Assembly (NCBI GenBank): GCA_020832345.1
Contig: JAFIEY010000155.1
Location: 4,581 to 68,580, forward strand
Direction: 5' to 3'
DNA length: 64,000 nucleotides
Origin: Cryomorphaceae bacterium
GTDB lineage: Bacteria; Bacteroidota; Bacteroidia; Flavobacteriales; Schleiferiaceae
The first letter of the stretch is position 1. The number at the start of each line of letters is the position of its first letter. Below the pieces are notes generated by a model, which made no database searches, was not told the origin of the DNA, and worked only from the letters and a program-made list of their open reading frames with translations. Positions 19,123 to 62,719 of this stretch are shown in pieces. The position numbers and the translations under genes were made by a program.

Positions 19123-19800
19123 ATGTTCGTTAAACCGGACCACATTGAAAAACTTGCCCGGCATTTCCCGGCCACTACCCAGGAATGGCGCAACAGCATC
19201 CTGGAAAACGGGCGTGTTTTTACCTCCGAATTGGGTGCAGATATTATTCGCGAGGGAGATTCCGCTAAATGTGTTTTCATTTTATCCGGGCTGGGTTTGT
19301 GCATTTCAAATGAAAAAGCCACATTAGTAACACCTGGAAAGTGTATTGGTTTACAAGAAACTTTTTCATCGGTGAAAACGCCCAGCACCATTTCCAATGA
19401 CCAGAACGAACGAAAAACTCAGGGGAATTTTTTGCCCTTTAATTGTAAAATTCAAACCATTAGCAATAAATTGGTTTACCTCGTCATTGAGGGAGATGCT
19501 GTTTTGAAAAGCGTGAAAAAAAATCCGGCACTTCAAGAAACCTGGTTTTATTTGCTCAACCAATGGTTTGAGGATGAAATGATCAGCGGACTTACCTTGT
19601 TTCAAAAAAGAACCAAAGACCGGATAAAAGAAGCGCTCAATTGCATACGAATTCACGCCGATGGCCACGTCAATTTTCCCATTAAATACCTTCAAGCCCT
19701 CACGGGTATAAGCAGGAGCAGTATGTATCGATGTCTGCGGGAAATGCAAACTACGGAGAATCGGGGTTTGTTATTTGAGAATGGAGTCGTTTACTTATGA
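19123..19800 (+). CDS. Crp/Fnr-like transcriptional regulator (cNMP-binding-like domain plus C-terminal HTH)
   Basis: ATG 19123 (MFVKPDHIEKL). The effector-domain-like part is GADIIREGDSAKCVFILSG and the HTH-like part is LTGISRSSMYRCLREM. The TGA stop (19798-19800) is the first 3 nt of a family-1 element. Confidence 0.6.
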   Translation: MFVKPDHIEKLARHFPATTQEWRNSILENGRVFTSELGADIIREGDSAKCVFILSGLGLCISNEKATLVTPGKCIGLQETFSSVKTPSTISNDQNERKTQGNFLPFNCKIQTISNKLVYLVIEGDAVLKSVKKNPALQETWFYLLNQWFEDEMISGLTLFQKRTKDRIKEALNCIRIHADGHVNFPIKYLQALTGISRSSMYRCLREMQTTENRGLLFENGVVYL

Positions 19801-19850
19801 GTCTGCTCTAAAAAGTCCCTTTCTGCCAAAATCTTCCTTTAGTGTTTTCA
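19798..19850 (+). mobile_element. Family-1 element, degenerate short or truncated copy
   Basis: TGAGTCTGCTCTAAAAAGTCCCTTTCTGCCAAAATCTTCCTTT is followed by a decayed right end, AGTGTTTTCA. No flanking duplication is visible. Confidence 0.7.
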
Positions 19851-22022: not shown

Positions 22023-22166
22023 TGAGTCTTCTCAAAAAAGTCCCTTTCTGCCAAAATCTTCCTTGTCTATAGACTTTTGAATCGTCACTAACAGCTGATT
22101 AGCTCCGGTTCAAAAATCCCGTCCGCGTCGATTTTAATTGAAATCATCCTTTTTAGAGTGGACTCA
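22023..22166 (+). mobile_element. Family-1 element, full-length form B (extra apical mini-hairpin)
   Basis: Both termini are present and the centre carries CTAACAGCTGATTAG. Exact flanking duplication accc at 22019-22022 and 22167-22170. Confidence 0.85.
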
Positions 22167-22814: not shown

Positions 22815-22871
22815 TGAGTCTGCTTTAAAAAGACCCTTTCTGCCAAAATCATCCTTTTTGGAGAGGACTCA
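22815..22871 (+). mobile_element. Family-1 element, 57-bp short form
   Basis: The left and right arms are fused at GCCAAAATC|ATCC. Exact flanking duplication ataa at 22811-22814 and 22872-22875. The left copy contains the TAA stop of the upstream gene. Confidence 0.85.
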
Positions 22872-23498: not shown

Positions 23499-23555
23499 GC
23501 GGATAGAACTGGGATTCTAAAAGGGGGGCTTTGGTTTTCTATTGCTTTACCATTA

Positions 23556-23680
23556 TGTCTGCTCCAAAAAGTCCCTTTCTGCCAAAATCTTCCTTTTCGG
23601 TAGATTTTTGAATCCTCACTTGCTCTGGTTCAAAAACCCCCTCGATTTTGATTGAAATCATCCTTTTTAGAGTGGACTCA
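23556..23680 (+). mobile_element. Family-1 element, form A
   Basis: The left terminus is TGTCTGCTCC, which lacks the AG of the consensus. Exact 6-bp flanking duplication ccatta at 23550-23555 and 23681-23686. Confidence 0.85.
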
Positions 23681-26287: not shown

Positions 26288-26426
26288 TGAGTCTGCTCAA
26301 AAAAGTCCCTTTCTGCCAAAATCTTCCTTGTCGGTAGATTTTTGAATCCTCACTAACGGATGGTTAGCTCTGATTTAAAAATCTCCTCGATTTTGATTGA
26401 AATCATCCTTTTAGGAGTGGACTCAC
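26288..26426 (+). mobile_element. Family-1 element, full-length form B
   Basis: Both termini are present and the centre carries CTAACGGATGGTTAG. The flanks match at only 3 of 4 positions (ttgt / ctgt). Confidence 0.85.
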
Positions 26427-29105: not shown

Positions 29106-29190
29106 TGAGTCTGCTCTAAAAAGTCCCTTTCTGCAAAAATCCCCACTGCGTCGATTTTGATTGAATTCATCCTTTTTGGAGTGGACTCTA
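29106..29190 (+). mobile_element. Family-1 element, internally deleted (85 bp)
   Basis: Both termini are present, the right one decayed to GGACTCTA. The junction is CTGCAAAAATC|CCCACTGCGTCG. Confidence 0.8.
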
Positions 29191-29434
29191 TCAAAGATTT
29201 TTCTTGGGTGTTTTAAGGACAGCACTGGACAAAAATGGTTCTCATTCCATTAACTAATACCATTTTAAAAAAAGCACCAAATCCTAAATTAAAATAACTT
29301 AATTTTGGGGATTATATCGGTTAAGATATTTGGGATTTTTTGAAGCATTTGCAAATTTAAGCACATATAGTGTTTGGCGTGCTTCCAATCCGAAATTTCA
29401 ATTGCCGAAAAAGACAATTATATTGACTGAAAAC

Positions 29435-32400
29435 ATGGCCGACACTTCTACCTACAGCTCATTATATCGACATCTGCCACTTCCTGCATTGGTCTATATT
29501 CTCAAAACCCTAAAAATTATAGATGCCAATCCTGCGGCTATTGACTTTTACGGTTATTCCAAAGAAGCGTTTTTAAACATGACACTGGAGGATATTCGTC
29601 CTTCGGATGAAATACCCAGGTTGCTTTCAGCGGTAGATCAATTAAAGGGGCAAGAGGGTAATATCAACTTTGGCATTTCAACACATCAAAAGAAAAACGG
29701 TGATTTGGTGCGCATGGAAATCAACGCCCATAAATTTGAGCTTCATGGCGAAACCTGCGTTATGGTTACTTGTCATGACGTAACCGAGCGCGAAATGCGT
29801 TACGCAGCCTTAATGGAATCGGAGCAAAAGCTTCAAGACGCCGTAAAAATTTCCAAAATAGGATATTGGAAACAGGATTTAGACGGTGGAAATTTACAGT
29901 GGTCTGACGAGGTTTATAATATATGGGGAATAAAGGAAACAACCCCAGCTCTAACTTCCGAATCCTTTTTGCGATCTATTCACCCCGATGATAAAGACCG
30001 CTATCTTCGGGAAAGAAAAAAGTTCAATCGGAAAGGGGGTGGTGAAATAGCCCATCGAATTATTAGGCCCGACGGTAGCGTTAGGTGGGTAAGGCATATT
30101 GGTCGAACCTTGTACAACCCGCATACCAAAAGCGAATTTGTACAGGGCACTGTTCAGGATATAACCGCACAAAAAAAAGAAGAGGAACGATTAAAGCTTC
30201 TCGAAAGCGTGGTAACCAATACAAACGATGCCGTTTTAATTACGGAGGCTGAACCCGTAGATGATCCCGGACCTAAAATCATTTACGCCAACAAGGCATA
30301 TACCAAAATGACTGGATATACTTTGGCGGAAAGTATTGGACAAAATCCAAGAATGCTACAGGGGCCAAAAACGGATGAGAGGGAATTAAAAATATTAAAG
30401 ACCGCTTTAAAAAACTGGAAACCCTGTGAGATTTCTGTTATCAATTACAAAAAAAATGGCGAAGCATTTTGGAACAACATGACCATAAAACCAGTGGCCA
30501 ACGAAAAAGGTTGGTTTACCCACTGGATTGCTATCGAAAGAGACATTACCCAACAAAAAAACGAGGAACAGGAAAAGGCCCTTTTGACCAAAATCAGTCT
30601 GGCTTTTCAAAAAGATTATTCCCTAACCAAAATCCTCACGAAAGTTTGTAACATTCTTGTAGAATACGGCGATTTTGCCTTTGGTGAATTTTGGTTGCCC
30701 GACATAAAAGAACAAACGATTAAACTTTCTGCAAAATGTAAAAATAATATTGCCGCTCAATCATTTTACAAAAACAGCAAAAGCACCACAAGTTTTGAAA
30801 AGGGAAAAGGACTTCCCGGAAAGGTATGGAAAAAAGGCAATATTGAAATCTGGGACAATCCCGGCAATAACGAGCAATTCACCAGAAAATCCGCTGCGAA
30901 AAAGGCGGGCATTACATCCATTATTGGCGCACCTCTCACTCACAACCAAAAATTTGTAGGCGTTTTGGTTATGGGCATATCCAACCTCGACGACAATTTA
31001 CAAAACCATCGGAATATTTTAAAAAGATTAGAATCATTTATTGGTTCAGAAATTAACCGAAAACGCCTAGAAAACCAGTTACAACACACCTTTCAAGCCA
31101 TACCAGATATCATTTGCTTAAAAGATTTTGAGGGTAATTTTTTAAAGATCAACCAATCGGGTTGTGATTTGCTCGGCTATGAGGAGAGCGAAATAATTGG
31201 AAGGTCTTGTGGAGACCTTATTCATCCGGCCCATATCCAACAGAGCGAAAAAATATTTTCCAAAATTTTATTGGGGCAAAAAAAGGCATCCTTCGAAAAC
31301 CGATACCTTACAAAAAATGGTTCTGTCGTTTGGTTGAGTTGGAATATTCGCAGCTCACCCGAGGACAAAATCCTTTACGCCAGTGCAAAAGACATTACCC
31401 GAGAGAAAAAACTCCGTGAACTTGTTGATAGCGCTACTTCTCTAGCACGGATTGGCGGATGGGATTTAGATTTAAAAACGGAAACGTTTTATTGGTCCGA
31501 CATGGTGCACCTCATTCACGAAACAGACATTGAAACCTACTCGCCAACACTGCCAGAGGCCATTAACTTTTATCGGGAAGATTATCGGGAGGAAATTGTA
31601 GGTATCATCACCAGAGCAGGCGAAACAACAGGACACTACGATTATGAAGCGCCCATTATTACCGCAAAAGGAAAGGAAATTTGGATACGCACCATTGGTC
31701 AGTTTGAATACCTAAACGGGGAACCCATTCGTATTTTTGGAAGTTTTCAGGACATCCACGAGCAAAAAATGGCCGAAATTCGGTTTAAAAGTGTGCAGGA
31801 CAATATACCAGGAGTCGTATTTCAGTACGTTCAACTACCCGACGGTTCAGATAAATTGACCTATGTGAGCAAAGGCTCGGAGATTGTTTGGGGACTCACA
31901 CCGGAGGAGTGCATGGAAGATGTGAGTAAAATTTGGGAGCAAATTGCCCGGGGTGGTACTCTTTCCAAAGTAGCCAACTCCGTCAGGGAATCTGCTGAGA
32001 AAATGGAAAAGTGGGAAGTTACCATGCGAAGCGTACTGCCAAACGGGGAGCTAATTTGGCTGGAAGGACATGGAATTCCCAGGGCCATGGCCGACGGAAG
32101 TGTAATATGGGACTCACTCATCATGGACGTTTCGGAACGGGTACAAATGAAGGAATTGCTGGAAGAAAGTATAAAAATATCCAGATTGGGCAGCTGGCAA
32201 CTTCAAGTATCTAACTCCGTCGTTTCCGACAAAATGTATTGGTCTCCCATGATAATAGAAATCCTCGAAATTGAGGAGGAAATCACCCCAACGCTGTTGA
32301 TGGCCTATTCCTTTTTTGAGGAAAAAAGTCGAAGCATCATCGAAAAAGCCGGTATAGCGCTTTTGGAAAAAGGCCGGGATTTTGATTTGGAATTACTGGT

Positions 32401-34354
32401 GAAAACAGCCAAGGGAAATGAGCGATGGGTGCGGTGTATAGGAAAATCAGATTGGGTTGACGGCGTTTGCATTCGCGTTTATGGAAGTTTTCAGGATATT
32501 CACCAAAGAAAAACCTCCGAATTGGAGCTTCAAAAAGCCTACAACGACAAGGTCAAGTTTATTGAAAGTATTGGAGATGCGTTCTTTACTGTAATGCCTG
32601 ATTTTGAAGTGACTTATTGGAACCAGAAAGCCAAAGAACTTTTGGGTATATCTCCGGAAGAAGTTGTGGGGAAAAATTTATGGGATGTTTTTGCCGATGC
32701 CGTAGAATTGCCATCGTACAAAAATTACCACCTGGCCCTGGAAACCAAAAAACCGATTTCCTTTGAGGATTTTTACGAAAACAAATGGCTGGAAGTAAAT
32801 GCTTTTCCTTCGGAGGAGGGGCTTACCGTATTTTTTAGAGACATTACCTATAGGAAAATTGCCGACGAGCGATTGGTAAAAGCATTTACTGAAAAAGTCA
32901 ATATTTTGGAAAGTATTGGGGATGCATTTTTTGCATTGGACAACAAATGGAAAGTGACCTACTGGAATCACATTGCTGAAAAAGTACTAGACATTCCCCG
33001 AAAAAAAATTGTGGGGAAAAATTTATGGAAAGTCTTTCCCAAGGCAATGGAATCTGATTTTTATGACCATTGTAAAAAAGCCAAAAAAACCGGCACCTCC
33101 GTACAATTTGAAGAACATTATCCCGATACTTCCAAATGGTTTGAAATTACTGCATATCCATCTGAGGAGGGGCTATCGGTTTATTTTAAGGACATAAGCT
33201 TGCGCAAGGAAACTGATATCCGGATTATTCAGGCCAACGAACGTTTTGAAAAAGCCGCTGAGGCAACCAGTGACGTTATTTGGGATTGGGATATCATGAA
33301 GTGTGAAATATCCTTTGGCAGTGGCTTGCTCACCAATTTCGGCCACGATTACAGCACCGAGCCTGTACCGATTGAAGTCTGGGAAAAATTGGTTCATTCC
33401 GAGGATAAAAACCGAGTCATTTCTTCACTTACCAAAACCATTGAAAATAAAGATGAGGAATACTGGGTAGAGGAGTATCGCTTTCTGAAAAAAGATGGCG
33501 ACTTCGCCTTCGTAATCGACAAAGGCGTGGTCATTAGGGATAAAAATGGAAAAGCCACCCGAATGGTTGGCGCCATAATAGACCAAACCTATCAGAAAAA
33601 ACACGAAAAGGAATTGCTCCGCCTAAATAAGGTTTTGCAAAAACACGCACAGGAATTAGAAACTTCAAACGAGCAACTCGAACAATTTGCCTATATTGCC
33701 TCTCACGACCTTCAGGAGCCCCTTCGCATGATCACCAGTTTTTTGAGTCAATTGGAACGAAAATACCAGAATCAATTGGACGAAAAAGCCAACCAATATA
33801 TCCACTATGCTTATGACGGTGCCAAGCGCATGAAACAAATAATCCTGGATTTGCTGGAGTACTCGCGTGCCGGAAGACAAGAAAACGATTGGGAAGAGGT
33901 AGATGTTAAAAGCATTTTTGAAGATTACCTGATGCTACGCAGAAAAATTATTGAAGAAAAATCTGCCCGATTAGTGGCCTCGCATTTACCTATTTTGGAA
34001 TGCTATAAAGCGCCCCTGATCCAAACCTTACATGCCCTCCTAGACAACGCCGTGAAATACAGTCGTGAAAACGTTGCTCCCGAAATAGCGGTTACCGCAG
34101 AAAAAAAGGAAGACCATTGGGAGTTTGCTGTTCGTGACAACGGCATTGGGATAGAGGAAAAGTTTTTTGACAAGGTATTCATTATATTTCAAAGATTACA
34201 CAACCGTGGGGAGTTTGAAGGCACTGGATTAGGACTTGCCATAGTGAAGAAACACGTGGAGTCTTGGGGTGGGAAAATTTGGTTGGAATCAACCTTGGGT
34301 AAAGGTTCGACTTTTTATTTTACTATTCCGGAGTTAAACCCTAAGTTTGAATAA
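29435..34354 (+). CDS. Cytoplasmic multi-sensor histidine kinase (about 10 PAS/PAC modules, 1 GAF, HisKA, HATPase_c)
   Basis: About 1639 aa from ATG 29435 with no TM segment. PAC-end motifs recur: DVTERE, DITAQKK, DITQQKN, DITREKK, DIHEQKM, DVSERVQ, DIHQRKT, DITYRKI, DISLRKE and IDQTYQKK. GAF region ...GKGLPGKVWKKGN...FVGVLVMG. H-box FAYIASHDLQEPLR. N and G boxes NAVKYS, DNGIGI and GTGLGLAIV. Confidence 0.9.
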   Translation: MADTSTYSSLYRHLPLPALVYILKTLKIIDANPAAIDFYGYSKEAFLNMTLEDIRPSDEIPRLLSAVDQLKGQEGNINFGISTHQKKNGDLVRMEINAHKFELHGETCVMVTCHDVTEREMRYAALMESEQKLQDAVKISKIGYWKQDLDGGNLQWSDEVYNIWGIKETTPALTSESFLRSIHPDDKDRYLRERKKFNRKGGGEIAHRIIRPDGSVRWVRHIGRTLYNPHTKSEFVQGTVQDITAQKKEEERLKLLESVVTNTNDAVLITEAEPVDDPGPKIIYANKAYTKMTGYTLAESIGQNPRMLQGPKTDERELKILKTALKNWKPCEISVINYKKNGEAFWNNMTIKPVANEKGWFTHWIAIERDITQQKNEEQEKALLTKISLAFQKDYSLTKILTKVCNILVEYGDFAFGEFWLPDIKEQTIKLSAKCKNNIAAQSFYKNSKSTTSFEKGKGLPGKVWKKGNIEIWDNPGNNEQFTRKSAAKKAGITSIIGAPLTHNQKFVGVLVMGISNLDDNLQNHRNILKRLESFIGSEINRKRLENQLQHTFQAIPDIICLKDFEGNFLKINQSGCDLLGYEESEIIGRSCGDLIHPAHIQQSEKIFSKILLGQKKASFENRYLTKNGSVVWLSWNIRSSPEDKILYASAKDITREKKLRELVDSATSLARIGGWDLDLKTETFYWSDMVHLIHETDIETYSPTLPEAINFYREDYREEIVGIITRAGETTGHYDYEAPIITAKGKEIWIRTIGQFEYLNGEPIRIFGSFQDIHEQKMAEIRFKSVQDNIPGVVFQYVQLPDGSDKLTYVSKGSEIVWGLTPEECMEDVSKIWEQIARGGTLSKVANSVRESAEKMEKWEVTMRSVLPNGELIWLEGHGIPRAMADGSVIWDSLIMDVSERVQMKELLEESIKISRLGSWQLQVSNSVVSDKMYWSPMIIEILEIEEEITPTLLMAYSFFEEKSRSIIEKAGIALLEKGRDFDLELLVKTAKGNERWVRCIGKSDWVDGVCIRVYGSFQDIHQRKTSELELQKAYNDKVKFIESIGDAFFTVMPDFEVTYWNQKAKELLGISPEEVVGKNLWDVFADAVELPSYKNYHLALETKKPISFEDFYENKWLEVNAFPSEEGLTVFFRDITYRKIADERLVKAFTEKVNILESIGDAFFALDNKWKVTYWNHIAEKVLDIPRKKIVGKNLWKVFPKAMESDFYDHCKKAKKTGTSVQFEEHYPDTSKWFEITAYPSEEGLSVYFKDISLRKETDIRIIQANERFEKAAEATSDVIWDWDIMKCEISFGSGLLTNFGHDYSTEPVPIEVWEKLVHSEDKNRVISSLTKTIENKDEEYWVEEYRFLKKDGDFAFVIDKGVVIRDKNGKATRMVGAIIDQTYQKKHEKELLRLNKVLQKHAQELETSNEQLEQFAYIASHDLQEPLRMITSFLSQLERKYQNQLDEKANQYIHYAYDGAKRMKQIILDLLEYSRAGRQENDWEEVDVKSIFEDYLMLRRKIIEEKSARLVASHLPILECYKAPLIQTLHALLDNAVKYSRENVAPEIAVTAEKKEDHWEFAVRDNGIGIEEKFFDKVFIIFQRLHNRGEFEGTGLGLAIVKKHVESWGGKIWLESTLGKGSTFYFTIPELNPKFE

Positions 34355-34499
34355 TAAGTCCACGCCAAAAAGTCCCTTTCTGCCAAAATCTTCCTTGTTA
34401 GTAGATTTTTGAATCCTCACTAACAGACAGTAAGCTGCGGTTTAAAAACCTCCTCCACGTCGATTTTGATTGAGATCATGCTTTTTGGCGTTGACTTCA
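34355..34499 (+). mobile_element. Family-1 element, form B, diverged copy with co-varying termini
   Basis: Starts 1 nt after the kinase TAA stop. The termini are TAAGTCCACGCCAAAAAG / CTTTTTGGCGTTGACTTCA. CTCT became CGCC in the left arm, with the matching AGAG to GGCG change in the right arm. Confidence 0.8.
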
Positions 34500-34676
34500 T
34501 TATAAATGAGTAAAAACTATGAATTTTGCTCATTTTTACTAAATATACCTATTATTCTACTTTTCTGAATAACTTTGTTGACGGAAGCATGGGGCTTAAA
34601 ATCTTTGGGGTTTGCCTTTTGTGTTGGTGAATTGCCACGAAATAACGTTCCTTTGTATAATCCAAAATCTCCCAGC

Positions 34677-41253: not shown

Positions 41254-41310
41254 TGAGACTGCTCTAAAAAGTCCCATTCTGCCAAAATCATCCTTTTTAG
41301 AGTGGACTCA
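41254..41310 (+). mobile_element. Family-1 element, 57-bp short form
   Basis: TGAGACTGCTCTAAAAAGTCCCATTCTGCCAAAATC|ATCCTTTTTAGAGTGGACTCA. Confidence 0.85.
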
Positions 41311-41526
41311 TAAGTTTATTCTTGCACAATCTGCCTTCATTGGTCTAATCTCATCAACAAAGGTACGAACACAGATGTTTTCCCTTGTCCAAAATTCCGA
41401 CCCATTTGGGGGAATTATCATTGCGGTTGTCGCCTCAACAAAAAGCTGAATAGACCATAAGACAACATCCTGCTAAACAGCAAAATTCCAACCAGAAACC
41501 ATCTAATATTATCACAATAATCCGGC

Positions 41527-41570
41527 ATAAAAAACCGCAGACAGGAATTTTCCCATCTGCGGTCTTTTTT
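41527..41570. terminator. Bidirectional rho-independent terminator-like hairpin
   Basis: 8-bp stem accgcaga/tctgcggt (41534-41541 and 41556-41563), flanked by an A-run on the left and cTTTTTT on the right. Confidence 0.55.
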
Positions 41571-41584
41571 AGAATAATCAAATA

Positions 41585-41670
41585 TGAGTCTGCTCTAAAA
41601 AGTCCCTTTCTGCCAAAATCTTCCTTGTGGGTAGATTTTGATTGAAATCATCCTTTTTGGAGTGGACTCA
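41585..41670 (+). mobile_element. Family-1 element, internally deleted (86 bp)
   Basis: Both termini are intact and the junction is GTAGATTTT|GATTGAAATC. Confidence 0.85.
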
Positions 41671-41711
41671 AAGTTTTCTTAAAAAGCCTTATTGAAAAAT
41701 CTGGCTACCAT

Positions 41712-41836
41712 GTCTTTGATAAGAAAACCCCAAAGACAAGGCTTTCAAAGTTTTTGAATCCAAGGCGCTTATATAAAATAAGTAACTGATTCAAAAACTT
41801 TGAGTAACGCAGTATTTGGAGTTTTCTTGCAAAGAC
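41712..41836 (-). repeat. Family-2 palindromic post-stop element (copy after groEL)
   Basis: In gene orientation it reads GTCTTTGCAAGAAAAC...CAAAGTTTTTGAATC-loop-GGATTCAAAAACTTTG...GTTTTCTTATCAAAGAC. It starts 3 nt after the groEL TAA stop. By eye it is about 80% identical to 58671-58793. Confidence 0.8.
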
Positions 41837-41839
41837 AAA

Positions 41840-43480
<1,641 letters not shown>

Positions 43481-49863: not shown

Positions 49864-49920
49864 TGAGTCTGCTCCAAAAAGTCCCTTTCTGCCAAAATCT
49901 TCCTTTTTCGAGTGTACTCA
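49864..49920 (+). mobile_element. Family-1 element, 57-bp short form
   Basis: Junction AAAATCTTCCTT|TTTCGAG. Exact flanking duplication actg at 49860-49863 and 49921-49924. Its last 3 nt (TCA) are the TGA stop of the minus-strand gene 49918-50592. Confidence 0.85.
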
Positions 49921-51822: not shown

Positions 51823-51956
51823 TGAGTCTGCTCTAAAAAGTCCCTTTCTGCCAAAATCTTCCTTGTCGGTAGATTTTCGAATCCTAACTTGCTCCGGTTC
51901 AAAAATCCCTTCCGCGTCGATTTTGATTGAAATCATCCTTGTTTGGAGTGGACTCA
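51823..51956 (+). mobile_element. Family-1 element, full-length form A, in a divergent promoter region
   Basis: Both termini are intact. It lies between the starts of 50599-51768 (-) and 52020-52943 (+). Confidence 0.85.
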
Positions 51957-55090: not shown

Positions 55091-56095
55091 ATGAAAGAAG
55101 GCAACAGCAACGAACCCATTCTCACCGAAAACAAAAACCGCTTTGTACTATTCCCCATTCAACATAATGACATTTGGGATTACTACAAAAAACAAGAAGC
55201 CAGCTTTTGGACCGCAGAGGAAATCGACCTGCACCAAGACATGACTGATTGGGAAAACAAACTCAACGAAGACGAGCGTTATTTCATCAAACACATCCTC
55301 GCATTTTTCGCAGCCAGCGATGGTATCGTCAATGAAAATTTGGCCGAAAACTTCGTGAATGAAGTTCAATATACCGAGGCGAAATTCTTTTACGGTTTTC
55401 AAATCATGATGGAAAACATCCATTCGGAAACCTATTCGCTCCTCATCGACACCTATATTAAAGACAAAGAAGATGCAAACCGCCTCTTCAACGCCATTGA
55501 GAATTTCCCCGCCATCAAGAAAAAAGCAGATTGGGCATTGCGCTGGATTGATTCACCTTCTTTTGCCGAGCGTCTGATCGCTTTTGCCGCTGTAGAGGGC
55601 ATCTTTTTTAGCGGATCTTTCTGTTCCATTTTCTGGTTGAAAAAACGCGGACTTATGCCGGGACTAACTTTCTCAAACGAATTGATTTCCCGCGATGAAG
55701 GTCTGCACTGTGATTTCGCCGTTCACCTGCACAACAACCACTTGGTCAATAAAGTGCCCAAAGAACGCATTCGTCAGATTATTGTAGAAGCACTCGAAAT
55801 CGAACGCGAATTCATCACCGAAAGTTTGCCTGCCCGTCTAATCGGAATGAACTCAGACCTCATGACCCAATACTTAGAGTTTGTTACCGACCGTTTATTA
55901 GTTGAGCTCGAATGTGAAAAAGAATACAACGTCGAAAATCCATTCGATTTCATGGAAATGATCTCGCTTCAGGGAAAAACCAATTTCTTTGAAAAACGTG
56001 TAGGTGAATACAAAAAGGCTTTTGTCAACACCTCCTCCAGTACCGACGAAAACAAAGAGAAAAAAGACACCTTCTCTTTCGACGACAACTTTTAA
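55091..56095 (+). CDS. nrdB: Class Ia ribonucleotide reductase beta subunit
   Basis: 334 aa. Di-iron and Tyr-radical motifs: [29 protein letters not shown] and ISRDEGLH. Confidence 0.95.
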
Positions 56096-56225
56096 AAACC
56101 CGCCGATCAATAACGTACCCCGGTTCAAGGTGCCGGGGCGTTTAACTGACGGCTAACCTTTAAAGGCGCAAATGAATAAAACTACACACAACCTAATTCA
56201 GGAAAAAATTTAAAAAGCCATTGCC

Positions 56226-58667
56226 ATGTTTGTAATTAAAAGAGACGGAAGAAAAGAACCGGTCAAGTTCGATAAAATCACTGCCCGCGTTGAAAAGCTG
56301 TGTTACGGACTCAGCGAAATTGTCAATCCCACCACCGTGGCCGTCAAAGTCATCGAAGGGATTTACGATGGTGTAACGACCACCGAACTCGACAGTTTGG
56401 CTGCGGAAATTAGCGCCAGCATGACAACGCGCCACCCCGACTACGCAAAACTGGCCGCCCGCATCGCCGTTTCAAACCTGCACAAAAACACCGAAAAATC
56501 TTTTTCGGAAACCATGCGCACGCTGCACACCTATATCAACCCAAAAACCAATCTGCAATCCCCACTCATTGCCGATGATGTGATGGAAATCATCGAAGCC
56601 AATGCCGAGCGATTGGATTCAACCATCATTTACGATCGTGATTTTGGGTACGACTACTTTGGGTTCAAAACCCTTGAGCGTTCGTACTTGCTGCGCATCA
56701 ATGGAAAAATTGCCGAGCGTCCGCAACACATGCTCATGCGCGTTTCTGTGGGCATCCACAAAGAAGATATCGAATCGGCCATCAAAACCTACGAGTTGAT
56801 GTCCAAAAAATTCTTCACGCACGCTACGCCAACACTTTTCAACGCCGGTACGCCCAAGCCGCAAATGTCGTCCTGTTTCCTACTCACCATGAAAGACGAC
56901 AGCATTGACGGAATTTACGATACCTTAAAGCAATGTTCAAAAATCTCTCAGTCGGCAGGTGGAATCGGATTGGCAATCCACAATGTGCGCGCTACCGGAA
57001 GTTACATTCGCGGCACCAACGGCACCAGCAACGGCATTGTTCCCATGCTTCGCGTATTTAACGACACCGCCCGTTATGTAGATCAAGGCGGCGGAAAACG
57101 CAAAGGATCCTTTGCCATTTATATGGAACCATGGCACGCCGACATCAACGATTTCCTCGACCTAAAAAAGAATCACGGAAAAGAAGAAAACCGCGCCCGC
57201 GATTTGTTTTATGCCCTGTGGATTTCCGACCTCTTTATGGAACGCGTTGAAAGCGATGGAAAATGGACACTCATGTGCCCCAACGAATGCCCCGGTCTCG
57301 ACGAAGCCTACGGTGCAAAATTCCGCGAACTTTACGAAAGATACGAGGCCGAAAACAAAGGTCGCAAAACCATCAAAGCACGCGAACTGTGGACCAAAAT
57401 CGTTGAGTCACAAATTGAAACGGGCACACCATACATGCTCTATAAAGATGCAGCCAACGAAAAATCCAACCAGAAAAACCTGGGCACCATTCGTTCGTCA
57501 AACCTTTGTACCGAAATCTTAGAATATACTTCACCCGACGAAGTGGCCGTTTGCAACCTCGCCTCTTTGGCCCTGCCCATGTTTATCGAGGACAACAAAT
57601 TCAACCACCAATTGCTGTATGAGGTCACCTATCAGGTCACCAAAAACCTCAACAAAGTCATCGACCGGAATTACTATCCCGTGCCCGAGGCGCGTAACAG
57701 CAACATGAAACACCGTCCCGTGGGATTGGGCATCCAGGGCCTCGCCGATGCCTTTATCATGTTGCGCATGCCATTCACCAGTGAAGAAGCCCGCCAGCTC
57801 AACAAGGATATTTTCGAAACCATTTACTACGCTGCCCTTTGCGCATCAAAAGACGAAGCCAAAGCCGACGGCGCATACGAAACCTTTAAAGGTTCACCCA
57901 TTTCTGAGGGTAAGTTCCAGTTTGATTTGTGGAACATCGATGCCGCCGACCTGAGTGGTCGCTGGAATTGGGAAAGCCTCCGCAGCGAAGTGGTCGAACA
58001 CGGGGTGAGAAACAGCCTTTTGTTGGCCCCCATGCCAACTGCCTCCACATCACAAATTCTCGGCAACAACGAATGTTTCGAGCCTTATACATCAAACATT
58101 TATACCCGTAGAGTACTAAGCGGAGAATTCGTCGTCGTCAACAAGCACCTATTGCTCGATCTGGTCGAACTCGGCTTGTGGGATGAAGAAATGAAGAACG
58201 AAATCATCCGCGCCAACGGAAGTGTCCAGCACATCGAAAACATCCCAGAGGAGATCAAAGTGTTGTACAAAACCGTTTGGGAAATGAGCATGAAAGACAT
58301 CATCGACATGGCGGCAGACCGCGGAATTTTCATCGATCAATCCCAAAGTCTGAACCTCTTCGTAGAGAGTCCCAATCTCGGCAAACTCACCTCCATGCAT
58401 TTCTATGCCTGGAAAAAAGGTCTGAAAACCGGAATGTACTACCTTCGCACCAAGTCCGCCACCGACGCCATTAAATTTACCGTGGGCAAAAAAGCCGTGG
58501 CAGAACCCAGCATCACCGCCGAAAGTCTTCAGCAAAGACAAGTTGACACCAAAACCCTAGGCGAGAAACGTTCGCAGGAACTTTTGGCCGCCAACGGATA
58601 TACCGCCGAAGAGGCCCTCGCGTGTTCGATTGATAATCCCGATGAGTGCGAAGCTTGCGGATCATAA
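56226..58667 (+). CDS. nrdA: Class Ia ribonucleotide reductase alpha subunit with N-terminal ATP-cone
   Basis: 813 aa. [16 protein letters not shown] (ATP-cone), [21 protein letters not shown], and the C-terminal Cys pair CEACGS. Confidence 0.95.
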
Positions 58668-58670
58668 ATT

Positions 58671-58793
58671 GTCTTTGAAGTAAAACGCCATAGACTTCGT
58701 TACTTATAGTTTTTAAATCAGTTACTTATTCATATAAGCGCCTTAGATTTATAAACTAAAAAAGCCTCGTCTATGACATTTTCTTGCAAAGAC
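58671..58793 (+). repeat. Family-2 palindromic post-stop element (copy after nrdA)
   Basis: GTCTTTGAAGTAAAAC...TATAGTTTTTAAATC-loop-AGATTTATAAACTA...ATTTTCTTGCAAAGAC. It starts 3 nt after the nrdA TAA stop and is collinear with the groEL copy. Confidence 0.8.
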
Positions 58794-58799
58794 CAAAAA

Positions 58800-58974
58800 G
58801 GAGGTTTTAATACAAAGCCTAGGGCGCCAGCCGGGCTATCCATTCCAAGTCCTCGCCCCCCAGGCACATTCAGTAAGCCGGAGAAGAGCTTCTAAGGTCG
58901 CTCTTCTCCGGCTTCTTCATGTATGCCTGTGGGGCTGTGGGCTTTCCATTTCTATCCCTGGCGCGAAAACCCCC
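58800..58974. ncRNA. Candidate rod-shaped structured RNA (unclassified)
   Basis: Nested complementary segments. GGAGGTTTT (58800-58808) pairs with AAAACCCCC (58966-58974). GCGCCAG (58824-58830) pairs with CTGGCGC (58958-58964). CCCCCAGGCACAT pairs with ATGTATGCCTGTGGGG. A perfect 13-bp apical stem, GCCGGAGAAGAGC (58877-58889) with GCTCTTCTCCGGC (58900-58912), has a 10-nt loop. Two same-sense strands of about 23-25 nt form a large internal bubble. Confidence 0.35.
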
Positions 58975-58985
58975 GCACGCATCGC
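58932..58985 (+). repeat. 54-bp direct repeat, copy 1 (3' arm of the rod structure)
   Basis: GGGCTGTGGGCTTTCCATTTCTATCCCTGGCGCGAAAACCCCCGCACGCATCGC. It is identical to 60419-60471 except for a 1-nt A-run length difference. Confidence 0.9.
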
Positions 58986-59093
58986 ATGTATTTTAGCACA
59001 GATTGCAGTTATCTGCACACCATCGGGGCTATTATTGTGAAGGGTTTTGCATCTGGTGTCAACCAAAGTTGTGATGAAGGCACTTATAAATTA

Positions 59094-59176: not shown

Positions 59177-60292
59177 TTACCTTTGGTGCGTGCTACAAAG
59201 TTCATAATTTGTGCTTCGTCCACCGCTTGCATCTTTTTGTAAAATATCCTTCTTCATTAAATCTTGAATATCTCGGAGAGCAGTATCCTGTGAGCACTTG
59301 TTGATTTTCGCCCATTTCGATGTCGTCAACTTTCCATCAAAACCATCCAGTAGTCTGTTTATTATTTTTTGCTGCCTATCATTGAGAATTGTTGTAGCAT
59401 GTAATTTCCAAAATTCTGCTTTTTGAAATACTTTAGATAAAGTTTCTTCTGAGGAATAAATCGCATTTAATAAGCATTGTAAAAACCACAAAATCCACTC
59501 TGTAATATCTGAATTTCCTTTTTGTGTTTTCTCAAGTTTTTCGTAATACTTTTTCCTATCCATTCTAATTTGAGCCGACATGCTATAAAAACGTCTAATA
59601 CTCTTATCTGAACGAGCCAACATCATGTCCGTAATTGCCCGTGTAATTCGTCCGTTCCCGTCATCGAATGGGTGAATTGTCACGAACCAAAAATGAGCAA
59701 TAGCTGCCTTAAGAACCAAATCTATTTCATGCTCGCTTTCAAACCAATCTAAGAACGCATTCATCTCTGCTTCTATCCTTTCTGAACTTGGCGCTTGATA
59801 ATGAACTTTTTCTTTTCCCATAGGGCCCGAAACAACTTGCATGGGACCAGTCGTGTCTTTTCTCCAGTCTGCAACTGTGATTTTATAGAGATTACTCCAA
59901 CCTGAAGGGAATAGTGCAGCATGCCAACCAAACAACCTGTCTTTAGTCAAAGGCACATCATATCTTTGTGTAGCGTCAAGCATCATTTCAACGATTCCAT
60001 CAACGTGGCGATCCGATTCCACAGCGCCCGCAATATCTATTCCTAGTCGCCTAGCAATTGAAGAACGTACTTGTCCTATATCCAAAAACTCACCTTCTAT
60101 TTCTGAAGATTTAATCACATCTAAAGTAAGCGTGTTCAAAACCGCTTCATTTTGCAAATCAAAACCAAGCGATTCCATTTTACCCAACAGTCTTCCTTGT
60201 TGGTTTCTTGCTTCCCCAAGTTTTATCATCACTTTTTTATTGTCCCAAGTGAAGTCTGTCCAGTTTTCGTTCTCGTGAATATAAATTTTCAT
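59177..60292 (-). CDS. fic: Fic-family AMPylase (Fic_N, Fic core and C-terminal winged-helix-like domain), class II with an intramolecular inhibitory motif
   Basis: 371 aa from ATG 60292 (MKIYIHENENWTDFTW). Core motif HPFDDGNGRITRAITD. The inhibitory-helix-type motif SSEIEG fits (S/T)xxxE(G/N) and lies upstream of the core. AT-rich compared with neighbouring genes. Confidence 0.9.
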   Translation of the reverse strand: MKIYIHENENWTDFTWDNKKVMIKLGEARNQQGRLLGKMESLGFDLQNEAVLNTLTLDVIKSSEIEGEFLDIGQVRSSIARRLGIDIAGAVESDRHVDGIVEMMLDATQRYDVPLTKDRLFGWHAALFPSGWSNLYKITVADWRKDTTGPMQVVSGPMGKEKVHYQAPSSERIEAEMNAFLDWFESEHEIDLVLKAAIAHFWFVTIHPFDDGNGRITRAITDMMLARSDKSIRRFYSMSAQIRMDRKKYYEKLEKTQKGNSDITEWILWFLQCLLNAIYSSEETLSKVFQKAEFWKLHATTILNDRQQKIINRLLDGFDGKLTTSKWAKINKCSQDTALRDIQDLMKKDILQKDASGGRSTNYELCSTHQR

Positions 60293-60337
60293 TCTCCGCA
60301 AATTATGCGACAAATATACAGCTTATTCTCCGCAAAT
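60291..60337 (-). promoter_or_regulatory. Tandem 13-bp direct repeat at the fic start
   Basis: ATTCTCCGCAAAT occurs at 60291-60303 (overlapping the ATG) and at 60325-60337, giving a 34-bp period. On the coding strand it reads ATTTGCGGAGAAT. Confidence 0.3.
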
Positions 60338-60418: not shown

Positions 60419-60471
60419 GGGCTGTGGGCTTTCCATTTCTATCCCTGGCGCGAAACCCCCGCACGCATCGC
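60419..60471 (+). repeat. 54-bp direct repeat, copy 2
   Basis: GGGCTGTGGGCTTTCCATTTCTATCCCTGGCGCGAAACCCCCGCACGCATCGC. It lacks the 5' partner arm, so it is a half-copy of the 58800-58974 structure. Confidence 0.9.
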
Positions 60472-60594
60472 TTGGAGATTAGCAAAATACCAGCATATCC
60501 GCTTTTGTGAAATATGCCACCGCTCAACCGTTTGCGGGATAAATAGTAAATCCTTATTTTTGTTCGCCATAAAGTCATCGAACATTCCGATTCA

Positions 60595-60930
60595 ATGACT
60601 TGCCCTACGAAAAAGCTAATGAATATTGAACAAACCAATATTAAACTGAAAAAACTAGGCATTGCTGGCTATGTCCTTAAAACTGCATTATTCTTTTACG
60701 GCTATATTGTCTTTAAATTCTATTTCTGGGAATGGGGCTGGGCATCTAAATTCGATTATACATTATTTTCAATAACCGACTTTGCCGCCCTCTTGATCGT
60801 CGTGATTATTGGAATATTATTACGTAGAATTGGCAATTTAATTGAAATCACATTAAAGGAGAATATTTCCCTTGGTGAATTGCAATACACTTTATTTGAA
60901 GAAGATAAAATATCCAAGCCCATTAATTAG
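60595..60930 (+). CDS. Hypothetical small membrane protein (2 TM)
   Basis: 111 aa with two hydrophobic segments (IAGYVLKTALFFYGYIVF and FAALLIVVIIGILL). AT-rich, and I recognise no motif. Confidence 0.4.
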   Translation: MTCPTKKLMNIEQTNIKLKKLGIAGYVLKTALFFYGYIVFKFYFWEWGWASKFDYTLFSITDFAALLIVVIIGILLRRIGNLIEITLKENISLGELQYTLFEEDKISKPIN

Positions 60931-60950
60931 AGCTTGTCCATAAAGTCAAA

Positions 60951-61073
60951 GTGGCTAGGTTAGAAGGTTCGAGGACAAGGCTTGCGAAACCTGAAATTCA
61001 GTGAGTTTACTAAAGTAAATGACCTTAATTTCAGGTGAGCATAACGCCGTCATCGGACTTTATAGCCAGCCAC
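60951..61073 (+). other. Long imperfect hairpin between two small ORFs
   Basis: Helices are GTGGCT/AGCCAC (the outer ends), GGTTCGAGGAC with GTCATCGGACT (partly wobble), a perfect 10-bp ACCTGAAATT (60989-60998) with AATTTCAGGT (61027-61036), and an apical TTTAC/GTAAA. The transition mismatches become G-U pairs only on the plus strand. Confidence 0.35.
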
Positions 61074-61122
61074 TAATTATATTTGGCTTGGACTCATTGC
61101 GATTTCCACAGCCTATATAGCC

Positions 61123-61461
61123 ATGTATTTTGAGGCGATTAAGTTAGGTGAAAAAGATGTATTTTTTATTTTATCACTCAATTTGTATTTCTTTCTTTTT
61201 TTTATTGTCGAAACTGAATTCCCCATTGAGGTTTATGAAAAAGGAATTCTTAGAACAAATAGAATTTTAAAAATGGTCGAATGGAATGATGTGCTTGACG
61301 TGGAATTGATCCGTAAAGGCGATCTGTTTATTTCTATTTTTTTATCCGAAAATGAGGAAATCCTAATAAACACTGGCCCATTTGCCCTTCAGGGATGTAA
61401 AAAGGAAAAAATATTGAACTTCTTACAAAATCAAATCCACCCCAAAAGTCAAAGTGCTTAA
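61123..61461 (+). CDS. Hypothetical protein (possibly 5'-truncated)
   Basis: 112 aa. The frame is open upstream to 61066 and encodes a TM-like WLGLIAISTAYIA with no ATG, so this may be a remnant or use a non-ATG start. Confidence 0.35.
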   Translation: MYFEAIKLGEKDVFFILSLNLYFFLFFIVETEFPIEVYEKGILRTNRILKMVEWNDVLDVELIRKGDLFISIFLSENEEILINTGPFALQGCKKEKILNFLQNQIHPKSQSA

Positions 61462-61465
61462 GCTA

Positions 61466-61598
61466 TGCGTCCACTCCAAAAAGGATGATTTCAATCAAAA
61501 TCAACTCAAAGGGAATTTTTGAACCGCAGCAAGTGAGGATTCAAAAGTCTATCGACAAGGAAGATTTTGGCAGAAAGGGGCTTTTTGGAGCAGACTGA
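61466..61598 (-). mobile_element. Family-1 element, full-length form A, inverted orientation
   Basis: TGCGTCCACTCCAAAAAGGATGATTTCAATC...GGCAGAAAGGGGCTTTTTGGAGCAGACTGA, with slightly decayed termini. Confidence 0.85.
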
Positions 61599-62581: not shown

Positions 62582-62719
62582 TGAATCAACTCCAAAAAGG
62601 ATGGTTTCAATCAAAATCGAGGGGATTTTTAAATCAGAGCTAACCATCCGTTAGTGAGGATTCAAAAGTCTATCGACAAGGAAGGTTTTGGCAGAAAGGG
62701 GCTTTTTGGAGCAGACCCA
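62582..62719 (-). mobile_element. Family-1 element, full-length form B, inverted orientation
   Basis: Its central core is identical to the copy at 26288-26426 (CTAACGGATGGTTAG). The termini are decayed (TGAATCAACTCC...GAGCAGACCCA). Confidence 0.85.

Follow-up and report, generated by a model that had tools for sequence, protein, structure and literature searches.

The stretch of DNA analysed here (the window) comprises 64,000 nucleotides of contig JAFIEY010000155.1 and belongs to a member of an uncultured, marine, Cryomorphaceae-like clade of the Flavobacteriales. Behind groEL and behind nrdA, which encodes the alpha subunit of class I ribonucleotide reductase (RNR), it carries two copies (e1 and e2) of a non-coding palindromic repeat folding into a long rod, while a third, more divergent copy (e3), missed in the initial annotation, does not stand behind any gene. 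The repeat family is real and previously uncatalogued, and it probably consists of small mobile elements resembling MITEs (transposable elements of miniature size with inverted repeats).

Three copies of a hairpin repeat and their surroundings

The copies, their host genes and the sequences at their ends are given below (alpha and beta are subfamilies of the repeat; family 1 is an unrelated MITE of the same window; scores of the copies refer to the covariance model R1, which was used for the window copies; UTR, untranslated region; ORF, open reading frame).

41712–41836, minus strand: e1 (alpha), 125-nt rod in the groESL 3' UTR, 3 nt past the groEL TAA, 125 bits
41837–41842, minus strand: TAATTT, the groEL stop codon with the 3-nt spacer, 5' boundary of e1
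41840–43477, minus strand: groEL, host gene of e1 (NCBIfam, 881 bits), preceded by GroES
41673–41688, minus strand: left-arm-like fragment GGCTTTTTAAGAAAAC agreeing with the alpha arm at 13 of 16 positions, 23 nt past e1, preceded by a TAA and adjoining a family-1 MITE
55091–56095, plus strand: ORF of the class I RNR beta subunit (nrdB)
56226–58667, plus strand: nrdA, host gene of e2 (NCBIfam, 725 bits)
58665–58670, plus strand: TAAATT, the nrdA stop codon with the 3-nt spacer, 5' boundary of e2
58671–58793, plus strand: e2 (alpha), 123-nt rod in the nrdBA 3' UTR, 3 nt past the nrdA TAA, 118 bits
60951–61073, minus strand: e3 (beta), 123-nt rod between the ORFs 60595–60930 and 61123–61461 (both plus strand) and antisense to both, 118.5 bits
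60930–60950, minus strand: 3' tail of e3, TTTGACTTTATGGACAAGCTC, 21 nt, a partial third copy of the arm
61074–61079, minus strand: TAATTA directly 5' of e3, a boundary of TAA plus 3 nt that is not the stop of any real ORF
60924–60929, minus strand: another TAATTA, adjoining the e3 tail on its 3' side; it repeats 61074–61079 perfectly over 6 bp in direct orientation and overlaps the TAG stop of ORF 60595–60930

The initial annotation had described e1 and e2 as collinear and about 80% identical, both starting with GTCTTTG exactly 3 nt past a TAA stop and in the same orientation relative to the gene. This was confirmed: the two are collinear over 125 and 123 nt, respectively, with 78–80% identity (blastn, E = 2e-25, and alignment), the junctions read TAA-TTT-GTCTTTG in e1 and TAA-ATT-GTCTTTG in e2, and both are sense to the host gene. 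The third copy was found with a profile made from e1, e2 and a related sequence behind the nrdA gene of a relative. With R1, the three window copies scored 118–125 bits on one strand and 35–42 bits on the other, indicating a clear polarity, and a search of the 64-kb window with the filters off gave no fourth copy. The element has a size of 123–125 nt (144 nt with the tail) and a G+C content of 31–45%, and is non-coding, overlapped only by spurious ORFs of 32–33 aa. The fragment at 41673–41688 may be left over from a second copy in tandem. GroEL and NrdA of the window each have an identical counterpart on one contig of a metagenome-assembled genome at NCBI, and the next best match of the GroEL had 93% identity.

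Hairpins of the terminator type are present beyond the repeat at both loci:

41524–41568, minus strand: groESL intrinsic terminator, an 18-bp hairpin (−26.8 kcal/mol) followed by U6, beyond e1 and a family-1 MITE
58872–58916, plus strand: nrdA terminator-like hairpin (−30 kcal/mol) followed by UUCUUCAU, 79 nt past e2

Their downstream position places e1 and e2 within the 3' UTRs, presumably co-transcribed with the genes, and argues that the element is not a terminator. A terminator module had been among the suggestions of the initial annotation, and a portable intrinsic terminator, in which the palindrome itself terminates transcription, would agree with a long stable hairpin directly behind genes and with the terminator-like repeats (SPRITE) found in other bacteria (PMC10969869). 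However, the stems are AT-rich and no T-run follows the rod, which is continued by ATGGTAGCC in e1 and by CAAAAAGG in e2. Moreover, canonical terminators, which are downstream of the element at both window loci, stand directly behind the stop codon in relatives without it, and one of the copies in relatives is located between the co-transcribed nrdB and nrdA. Termination by the palindrome itself thus deserves hardly any credence. A comparison with Rfam, also recommended at that stage, did not bring up any family matching the element: the covariance search of the window with Rfam 15 at gathering score detected a tRNA-Gly only, and at E values up to 10 it gave generic hairpin matches only, of 10–24 bits and far below threshold.

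Folding and covariation

The minimum free energy was −47.6 kcal/mol for e1 and −29.7 kcal/mol for e2 (z = −8.4 and −4.5 against dinucleotide shuffles), and the z values of the rod fold ranged from −4.5 to −9 across the copies. The rod has an outer stem and a second, long one; a small internal loop of asymmetric shape, a central stem of 16 bp and a small hairpin at the apex complete it. Both e1 and e2 fold in this way, as had been described, while the outer stem quoted in that description proved to be a composite of the two copies. The outer stems are inverted repeats, GTCTTTG/CAAAGAC and GTGGCTGGCTA/TAGCCTAGCCAC, and their terminal sequence varies by subfamily (GTCT, GTGG, TTGG, ATGT and GTGT across the copies).

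At least three stem substitutions between e1 and e2 had been reported as compensated, and the examples cited were right (positions 45/81, G-C to A-T; 35/91, C-G to T-A; 37/89, A-T to T-A). With the e1 fold as the scheme, 5 of 47 pairs were changed on both sides and all five were still paired, against 0.65 compensated pairs expected from a simulation that kept both the substitution count and the transition/transversion ratio fixed (P ~1.4e-4). The pattern is real and beyond chance. The statistics were extended to more copies, as the initial annotation had advised, with MAFFT alignments covering three subfamilies and containing either four or five full copies: 17 of the 33 consensus pairs had changes on both sides, and single-sided changes were nearly absent. 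The fraction of paired cells was 89–91%, compared to 32–43% with the partners slid by 1–3 columns, and the observed covariation was reached by no shuffle. The central stem (P4) was excluded from the 33 pairs because the alignment register shifts there; its sequences are unrelated between the subfamilies (AAAGTTTTTGAATC, ACCTGAAATT, GTCTAGGAA and AATTCAAAATCAGG), each with its own complement, and the 5' arm of the central stem in subfamily gamma resembles the 3' arm in alpha, which represents a flipped stem.

The unpaired motifs, on the other hand, were invariant, with CGTTA on the left side, AAGC.T.G (AAGCYTYG) on the right side and TTA...TAA at the apex, and T-C mismatches at columns 12/113 and 22/103 were retained in all beta and gamma copies. 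Such a combination of variable ends and invariant loops would fit enzymes reading folded single strands and is the reverse of the trace left by a transposase that binds terminal repeats.

Covariation may, in principle, appear without selection for structure. According to PMC8794818, template switching during the replication of a quasi-palindrome can create and maintain perfect stems, thereby mimicking compensatory substitutions. The repeat would then be otherwise inert DNA, and the near absence of one-sided changes looks as if both arms had been corrected in a single event. Yet arm-to-arm correction should have erased the T-C mismatches at columns 12/113 and 22/103, and it explains neither the invariant asymmetric loops nor the dispersal to new loci. 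As the sole explanation template switching is therefore highly improbable, but it complements the mobile-element reading and may help to keep the arms complementary.

The reverse strand folds at least as well as the strand with the motifs: −50.3 vs. −47.6 kcal/mol in e1 and −43.8 vs. −29.7 kcal/mol in e2. In each of the five copies the strand complementary to the motifs was the more stable one, with a margin of 2.7 to 14.7 kcal/mol, and this better-folding strand is the non-mRNA strand for e1, e2 and the copies L011A and L016 from relatives. On the fixed consensus structure, the sense G-T and A-C cells numbered 8 vs. 8 (3 vs. 8 without one invariant T-G), which is not significant. The strand asymmetry is only suggestive, and there is no sign of the mRNA strand being the selected folder. 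An independently transcribed family of small or antisense RNA genes, possibly read from the strand opposite to the host mRNA, could be supposed from the non-mRNA strand being the better folder in every copy and from the conserved unpaired motifs flanked by co-varying stems, which are typical of functional RNAs. It is very unlikely, given that the strand asymmetry is not significant on the fixed structure, that the element has no signals of its own resembling a promoter or a terminator, that Rfam gave no match, and that close relatives differ by gains, losses and truncations of copies.

In both alpha copies, the apical region (AATCAGTTACTTA, window positions 41789–41801 and 58716–58728) fits the enterobacterial consensus WATCARNNNNTTR of the integration host factor (IHF), and Correia elements also fit the IHF consensus. 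The idea of an IHF site was rejected, as the beta and gamma copies have no fit to WATCARNNNNTTR, a consensus derived from enterobacteria, and the alpha match may be a coincidence.

Copies in relatives and the insertion boundary

Loci of relatives were fetched via their GroEL and NrdA proteins and are referred to by labels such as L011. In L011, a full copy begins 5 nt past the nrdA TAA and is followed by a partial tandem copy, while L012, another strain with the same NrdA protein as L011, has a single hybrid copy and a gap shorter by 145 nt (L011:5466–5713 vs. L012:3858–3967). This difference indicates recombination between the tandem copies. In L016 and L017, a full copy is present exactly 3 nt past the nrdB TAA, within the nrdB–nrdA spacer, and L016 has an additional solo left arm past the nrdA terminator. 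Finally, a copy with a replaced centre was found in L018 upstream of pyrG, in a divergent promoter region, where it forms an insertion of approximately 125 nt relative to L005, whose pyrG-upstream site has just 18 unrelated or remnant bases. Since GCA_036681025.1 is a metagenome assembly, L005 and L011 do not necessarily come from the same organism. Empty nrdA sites were seen in L013, L014 and L016, which have plain terminators there, and the groEL site is empty in L002, L005, L018, L019 and L021, with a terminator about 22 nt past the stop or with no match to the model. Neither the further groEL loci (L019–L022) nor the Owenweeksia nrd locus (L023 and L024) contained copies. In the window, the nrdB–nrdA spacer that carries the repeat in L016 has a G+C-rich hairpin at 56113–56145 (ACGTACCCCGG...CCGGGGCGT), a possible attenuator or processing site.

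The copies fall into at least three subfamilies: alpha (e1 and e2), beta (e3 and L011A) and gamma (L016). The nrdA copy of the window (alpha) and that of the relative (beta) have only 50% identity, compared to 71–76% between e3 and the copies from relatives. Assuming clock-like divergence of any kind, these two nrdA copies are therefore not orthologues, and thus the same spot was filled independently by different subfamilies. The copy e3 is a mosaic, with arms like those of L011A (87%) and a centre like that of L016 (75%). Overall, the nrd operon has a copy in three of five lineages, through different subfamilies.

The dispersal over unrelated loci, the filled and empty sites, the partial and recombined copies and the subfamilies all favor a mobile element, which had been one of the options offered in the initial annotation. 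The same annotation had named random positions and orientations, together with a lack of covariation and of a defined transcript 3' end, as evidence against a specific role at gene ends; copies away from gene ends do exist (e3 and L018), yet the covariation is strong. A role in the transcript would be exerted by a selected cis-acting RNA module of the 3' UTR, possibly a domesticated repeat, serving as an mRNA stabiliser against 3' exonucleases or an RNase III site or slowing the terminating ribosomes on the highly expressed, essential groESL and nrdBA mRNAs. The strong covariation, the sense orientation within the transcript at four of six loci and the recurrent association with the nrd operon in three of five lineages, through different subfamilies, are in line with such a module, and effects on transcript levels are known for further MITEs located at the 3' ends of genes (Correia via RNase III; ERIC in Yersinia; PMC10969869). 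We nevertheless consider it rather unlikely, because the complementary strand folds better in five of five copies without any excess of G-U pairs in the sense strand, e3 is antisense to its neighbour ORFs and the L018 copy lies in a divergent promoter region. Furthermore, the nearest relatives lack the element behind these genes, it takes up different positions in the nrd operon from lineage to lineage, some copies are truncated or recombined, and no Rfam family matches it.

The 5' boundaries of the six copies are the following: TAA-TTT-GT (e1), TAA-ATT-GT (e2), TAA-TTA-GT (e3), TAA-TTC-AT (L016), TAA-TTTGTTG-GT (L018) and TAA-CGTTA-TT (L011A). In five of the six full copies, two of them not at a stop codon, a TAA precedes the rod by 3 nt. 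The TAA of e3 closes only a 10-codon frame and that of L018 is located beside a gene start, so that the boundary exists without a gene end. This points to a TAA-containing target or terminus as the common feature, rather than the stop codon as such; wherever the boundary TAA is a stop codon, the sense orientation is automatic. The proposed targeting of stop codons was thus borne out in part: three copies are at the stop of groEL, nrdA or nrdB and a fourth is 5 nt off the nrdA TAA, above the background of 7.5% (29 of the 387 non-coding TAAs in the window are stop codons), while e3 and the pyrG-upstream copy have no gene end. With 3–4 of six copies at stop codons, P is 0.007 to 0.0004, for a small sample whose first two copies prompted the question. 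The stop adjacency is genuine, but is largely explained by a TAA-containing insertion boundary and by the tolerance of this position.

At the other end, the beta and gamma copies have a tail extending about 21 nt past the rod (TTTGACTTTATGG....CTC), the reverse complement of which matches the left arm at 12–13 of 19 positions; comparison of the flanks showed a tail homologous to that of e3 in L016 and L018. With the tail included, e3 is flanked by TAATTA/TAATTA (6/6) and L016 by TAATTC/TAATTA (5/6), and the repeat around e3 with its tail is a possible target-site duplication. Excision of e3 together with the tail and one TAATTA (60930–61079, 150 nt) fuses the ORFs 60595–60930 and 61123–61461 in frame, so that a gene disruption by e3 is possible but unproven. 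These ORFs are orphans of 111 and 112 aa with no Pfam match, the fused ORF has 238 aa with a junction that reads like a membrane helix, and no homologue of the fused protein was found among 5.8 billion proteins. A TA-duplication model (IS630/mariner type) was tried and dropped, since the ends do not extend and TA...TA is present at e1 only.

Nature of the repeat and comparison with known systems

We conclude that the element probably represents a family of small, non-coding, non-autonomous, hairpin-forming mobile repeats of the MITE/REPIN kind in one Cryomorphaceae-like clade of the Flavobacteriales: its copies are dispersed and polar, form at least three subfamilies, are gained and lost between close relatives and keep the hairpin by compensated or flipped stems. 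Such repeats would be moved by an enzyme encoded elsewhere, which may recognise the folded single strand and the invariant loops in a mode nearer to REPIN/RAYT, to the ends of IS200/IS605 or to attC than to the classical binding of terminal inverted repeats. Integration would be strand-specific and would occur immediately 3' of an AT-rich, TAA-containing site (TAA-WTW). Every gene end may offer such a TAA at a harmless position, in the form of its stop codon, and surviving copies would then accumulate behind stops in sense orientation. There the element would be co-transcribed as a 3' UTR passenger upstream of the real terminator, and its 50-bp duplex could incidentally offer a site to RNase III or block exonucleases.

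Several observations weigh against this interpretation. No transposase or parent element was found in the window, where no gene is surrounded by matching ends, and a distant blastn search against plasmids with one alpha and one beta copy gave no match. Scans of genome, metagenome and viral contig collections with the alpha-specific apical core CAGTTACTTA-N3-6-TATAAGCGCC produced four isolated partial matches in unrelated contigs, approximately the chance level, although this says little about abundance. A target duplication can be seen only when the tail is included: alpha has no tail, and e1, e2 and L011A are without a convincing duplication. No clean empty site fixing the ends was available, as the groEL, nrdA, nrdB–nrdA and pyrG flanks of the relatives are too diverged or have a possible remnant. 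There are only six independent loci, four of them found by looking around groEL or nrd genes, which makes the site statistics fragile. Finally, stop TAAs are used (3–4 of 6), and nrd genes occupied, more often than a target of just any TAA would predict, which calls for selection or a stricter targeting rule in addition. One possibility of this sort is a strand-specific folded-hairpin element that homes to the TAA stops of highly expressed conserved genes (nrdB, nrdA and groEL), or has been recruited there since a duplex 3 nt past the stop modulates termination or mRNA decay. Though distinctly unlikely, homing or recruitment would explain two subfamilies arriving independently at the nrdA stop and the nrd copies in three of five lineages, and homing would amount to a 'safe-haven' strategy at single-base precision. 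Among the scan matches, a terminator-like hairpin in a metagenome-assembled genome of a sheep-colon Clostridia (L001:4073–4150) has a loop, ACAGTTACTTATTATATATAAGCGCCTGC, that differs from the apical core of alpha at only two of 29 positions (27 matches), although the phylum is unrelated; it was treated as a chance match, about four of which are expected.

The closest behaviour is that of REPINs, hairpin-forming REP doublets that are mobilised by tyrosine (HUH) transposases, the RAYTs. The resemblance to the REPIN/RAYT system includes a hairpin of some 100 nt in which two inverted arms enclose a spacer, a dispersed extragenic position mostly behind genes, compensatory changes, ends abutting or supplying stop codons, and asymmetric ends or a tail; compensatory changes have been reported for REPIN hairpins (PMC3116915), and REP termini supplying stop codons, mostly downstream of genes, have been described as well (PMC3733652). 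However, REPs are defined by a GTAG (or CGTC) tag at one end (PMC3733652), and no conserved tag of this kind is present in the element. Its arms, moreover, are not themselves small G+C-rich palindromes, its sequence is AT-rich, its host is a member of the Bacteroidota, and no RAYT gene was found in the window or in the fetched loci of relatives.

The palindromic MITEs (Correia/NEMIS of Neisseria, ERIC/IRU of enterobacteria and RUP of pneumococci) are likewise non-coding, 100–150 bp long, bounded by terminal inverted repeats and located beside coding regions, and Correia and ERIC are co-transcribed with their neighbours, forming long RNA duplexes that can be processed by RNase III or RNase E (PMC10969869). 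The element has the small non-coding size, the dispersed copies with filled and empty sites, and the terminal inverted repeats of a MITE. In contrast to these MITEs, it has no TA duplication, the TAATTA duplication appearing only with the tail, and it shows no sequence similarity to them; its termini vary and its internal loops are invariant, the opposite of what is expected with a DDE transposase binding terminal repeats.

Integron attC sites share with the element an imperfect palindrome of similar length a few bases past a stop codon, the precedence of structure over sequence, conserved unpaired or extrahelical bases and a functional folded form of one strand. Direct reading of five copies, however, revealed no R''/R' cores (RYYYAAC ... 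GTTRRRY) at the ends, the host genes (groEL, nrdA and nrdB) are core chromosomal genes instead of cassettes, and the window has no integrase or cassette array. The IS200/IS605 elements insert strand-specifically 3' of a short fixed target, have folded single-stranded ends and cause little or no target duplication. They and their miniature derivatives thus resemble the element in a strand-specific, 3'-of-target insertion without classical recognition of inverted repeats, but they have separate small hairpins at each end, while the ends of the element pair along its whole length. Besides, the orientations in the 64-kb window are mixed (minus, plus, minus) without a sign of replication-strand bias, and no TnpA or TnpB was found.

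The family-1 MITE shares with the element the genome and the stop-abutting habit, and one of its copies lies beside e1. It differs in its unrelated sequence, far higher copy number (14 copies in 64 kb), clear target duplications of 4–6 bp and modular short (~57 nt) and long (~140–160 nt) forms; its ends are TGAGTC...GACTCA. The copies are located at the following positions of the window:

1829–1961, family-1 MITE
19798–19839, family-1 MITE
22023–22166, family-1 MITE
22815–22871, family-1 MITE
23554–23680, family-1 MITE
26288–26425, family-1 MITE
29106–29189, family-1 MITE
34355–34503, family-1 MITE
41254–41310, family-1 MITE
41585–41670, family-1 MITE
49864–49920, family-1 MITE
51823–51956, family-1 MITE
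61466–61598, family-1 MITE
62582–62719, family-1 MITE

In 7 of the 14 copies an end lies at −3, 0, 0, −3, 4, 10 or 12 nt from a stop codon, the TGA being self-supplied in two. The presence of family 1 at stops as well points to stop-abutting as a habit generally shared by the small mobile repeats of this compact genome, where the stretch just past the stop is probably the least harmful target.

Two other kinds of repeats were noticed in the window. Near-identical direct repeats of about 67 nt (58932–58998 and 60419–60484; 98% and 88% identity in two blocks), 1487 nt apart, bracket a Fic/DOC gene (59177–60313, minus strand) and look like the att-like ends that an inserted cassette would have; L014 likewise has a Fic gene downstream of nrdA. 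The region 32533–33200, within the 1674-aa ORF 29330–34354, consists of internal tandem DNA repeats with a period of approximately 345–351 nt and 74–75% identity, which indicate repeated protein domains.

The repeat described here adds an undescribed family from a poorly studied, uncultured marine clade of the Flavobacteriales. With variable ends and stems but invariant internal loops, it turns the usual MITE pattern around, which points to the recognition of a folded structure. It also offers a simple reason for finding repeats exactly at stop codons in compact genomes, for which a TAA-containing target and purifying selection would suffice; the family-1 MITE, in contrast to this TAA-target repeat, carries a TGA within its own end, and its duplications vary. 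For genome annotation, the family is a caution against taking every long co-varying hairpin of a 3' UTR for a regulatory RNA. Should the recurrence at the stops of nrd genes and groEL hold genome-wide, the repeat would provide a tractable case of precise safe-site targeting.

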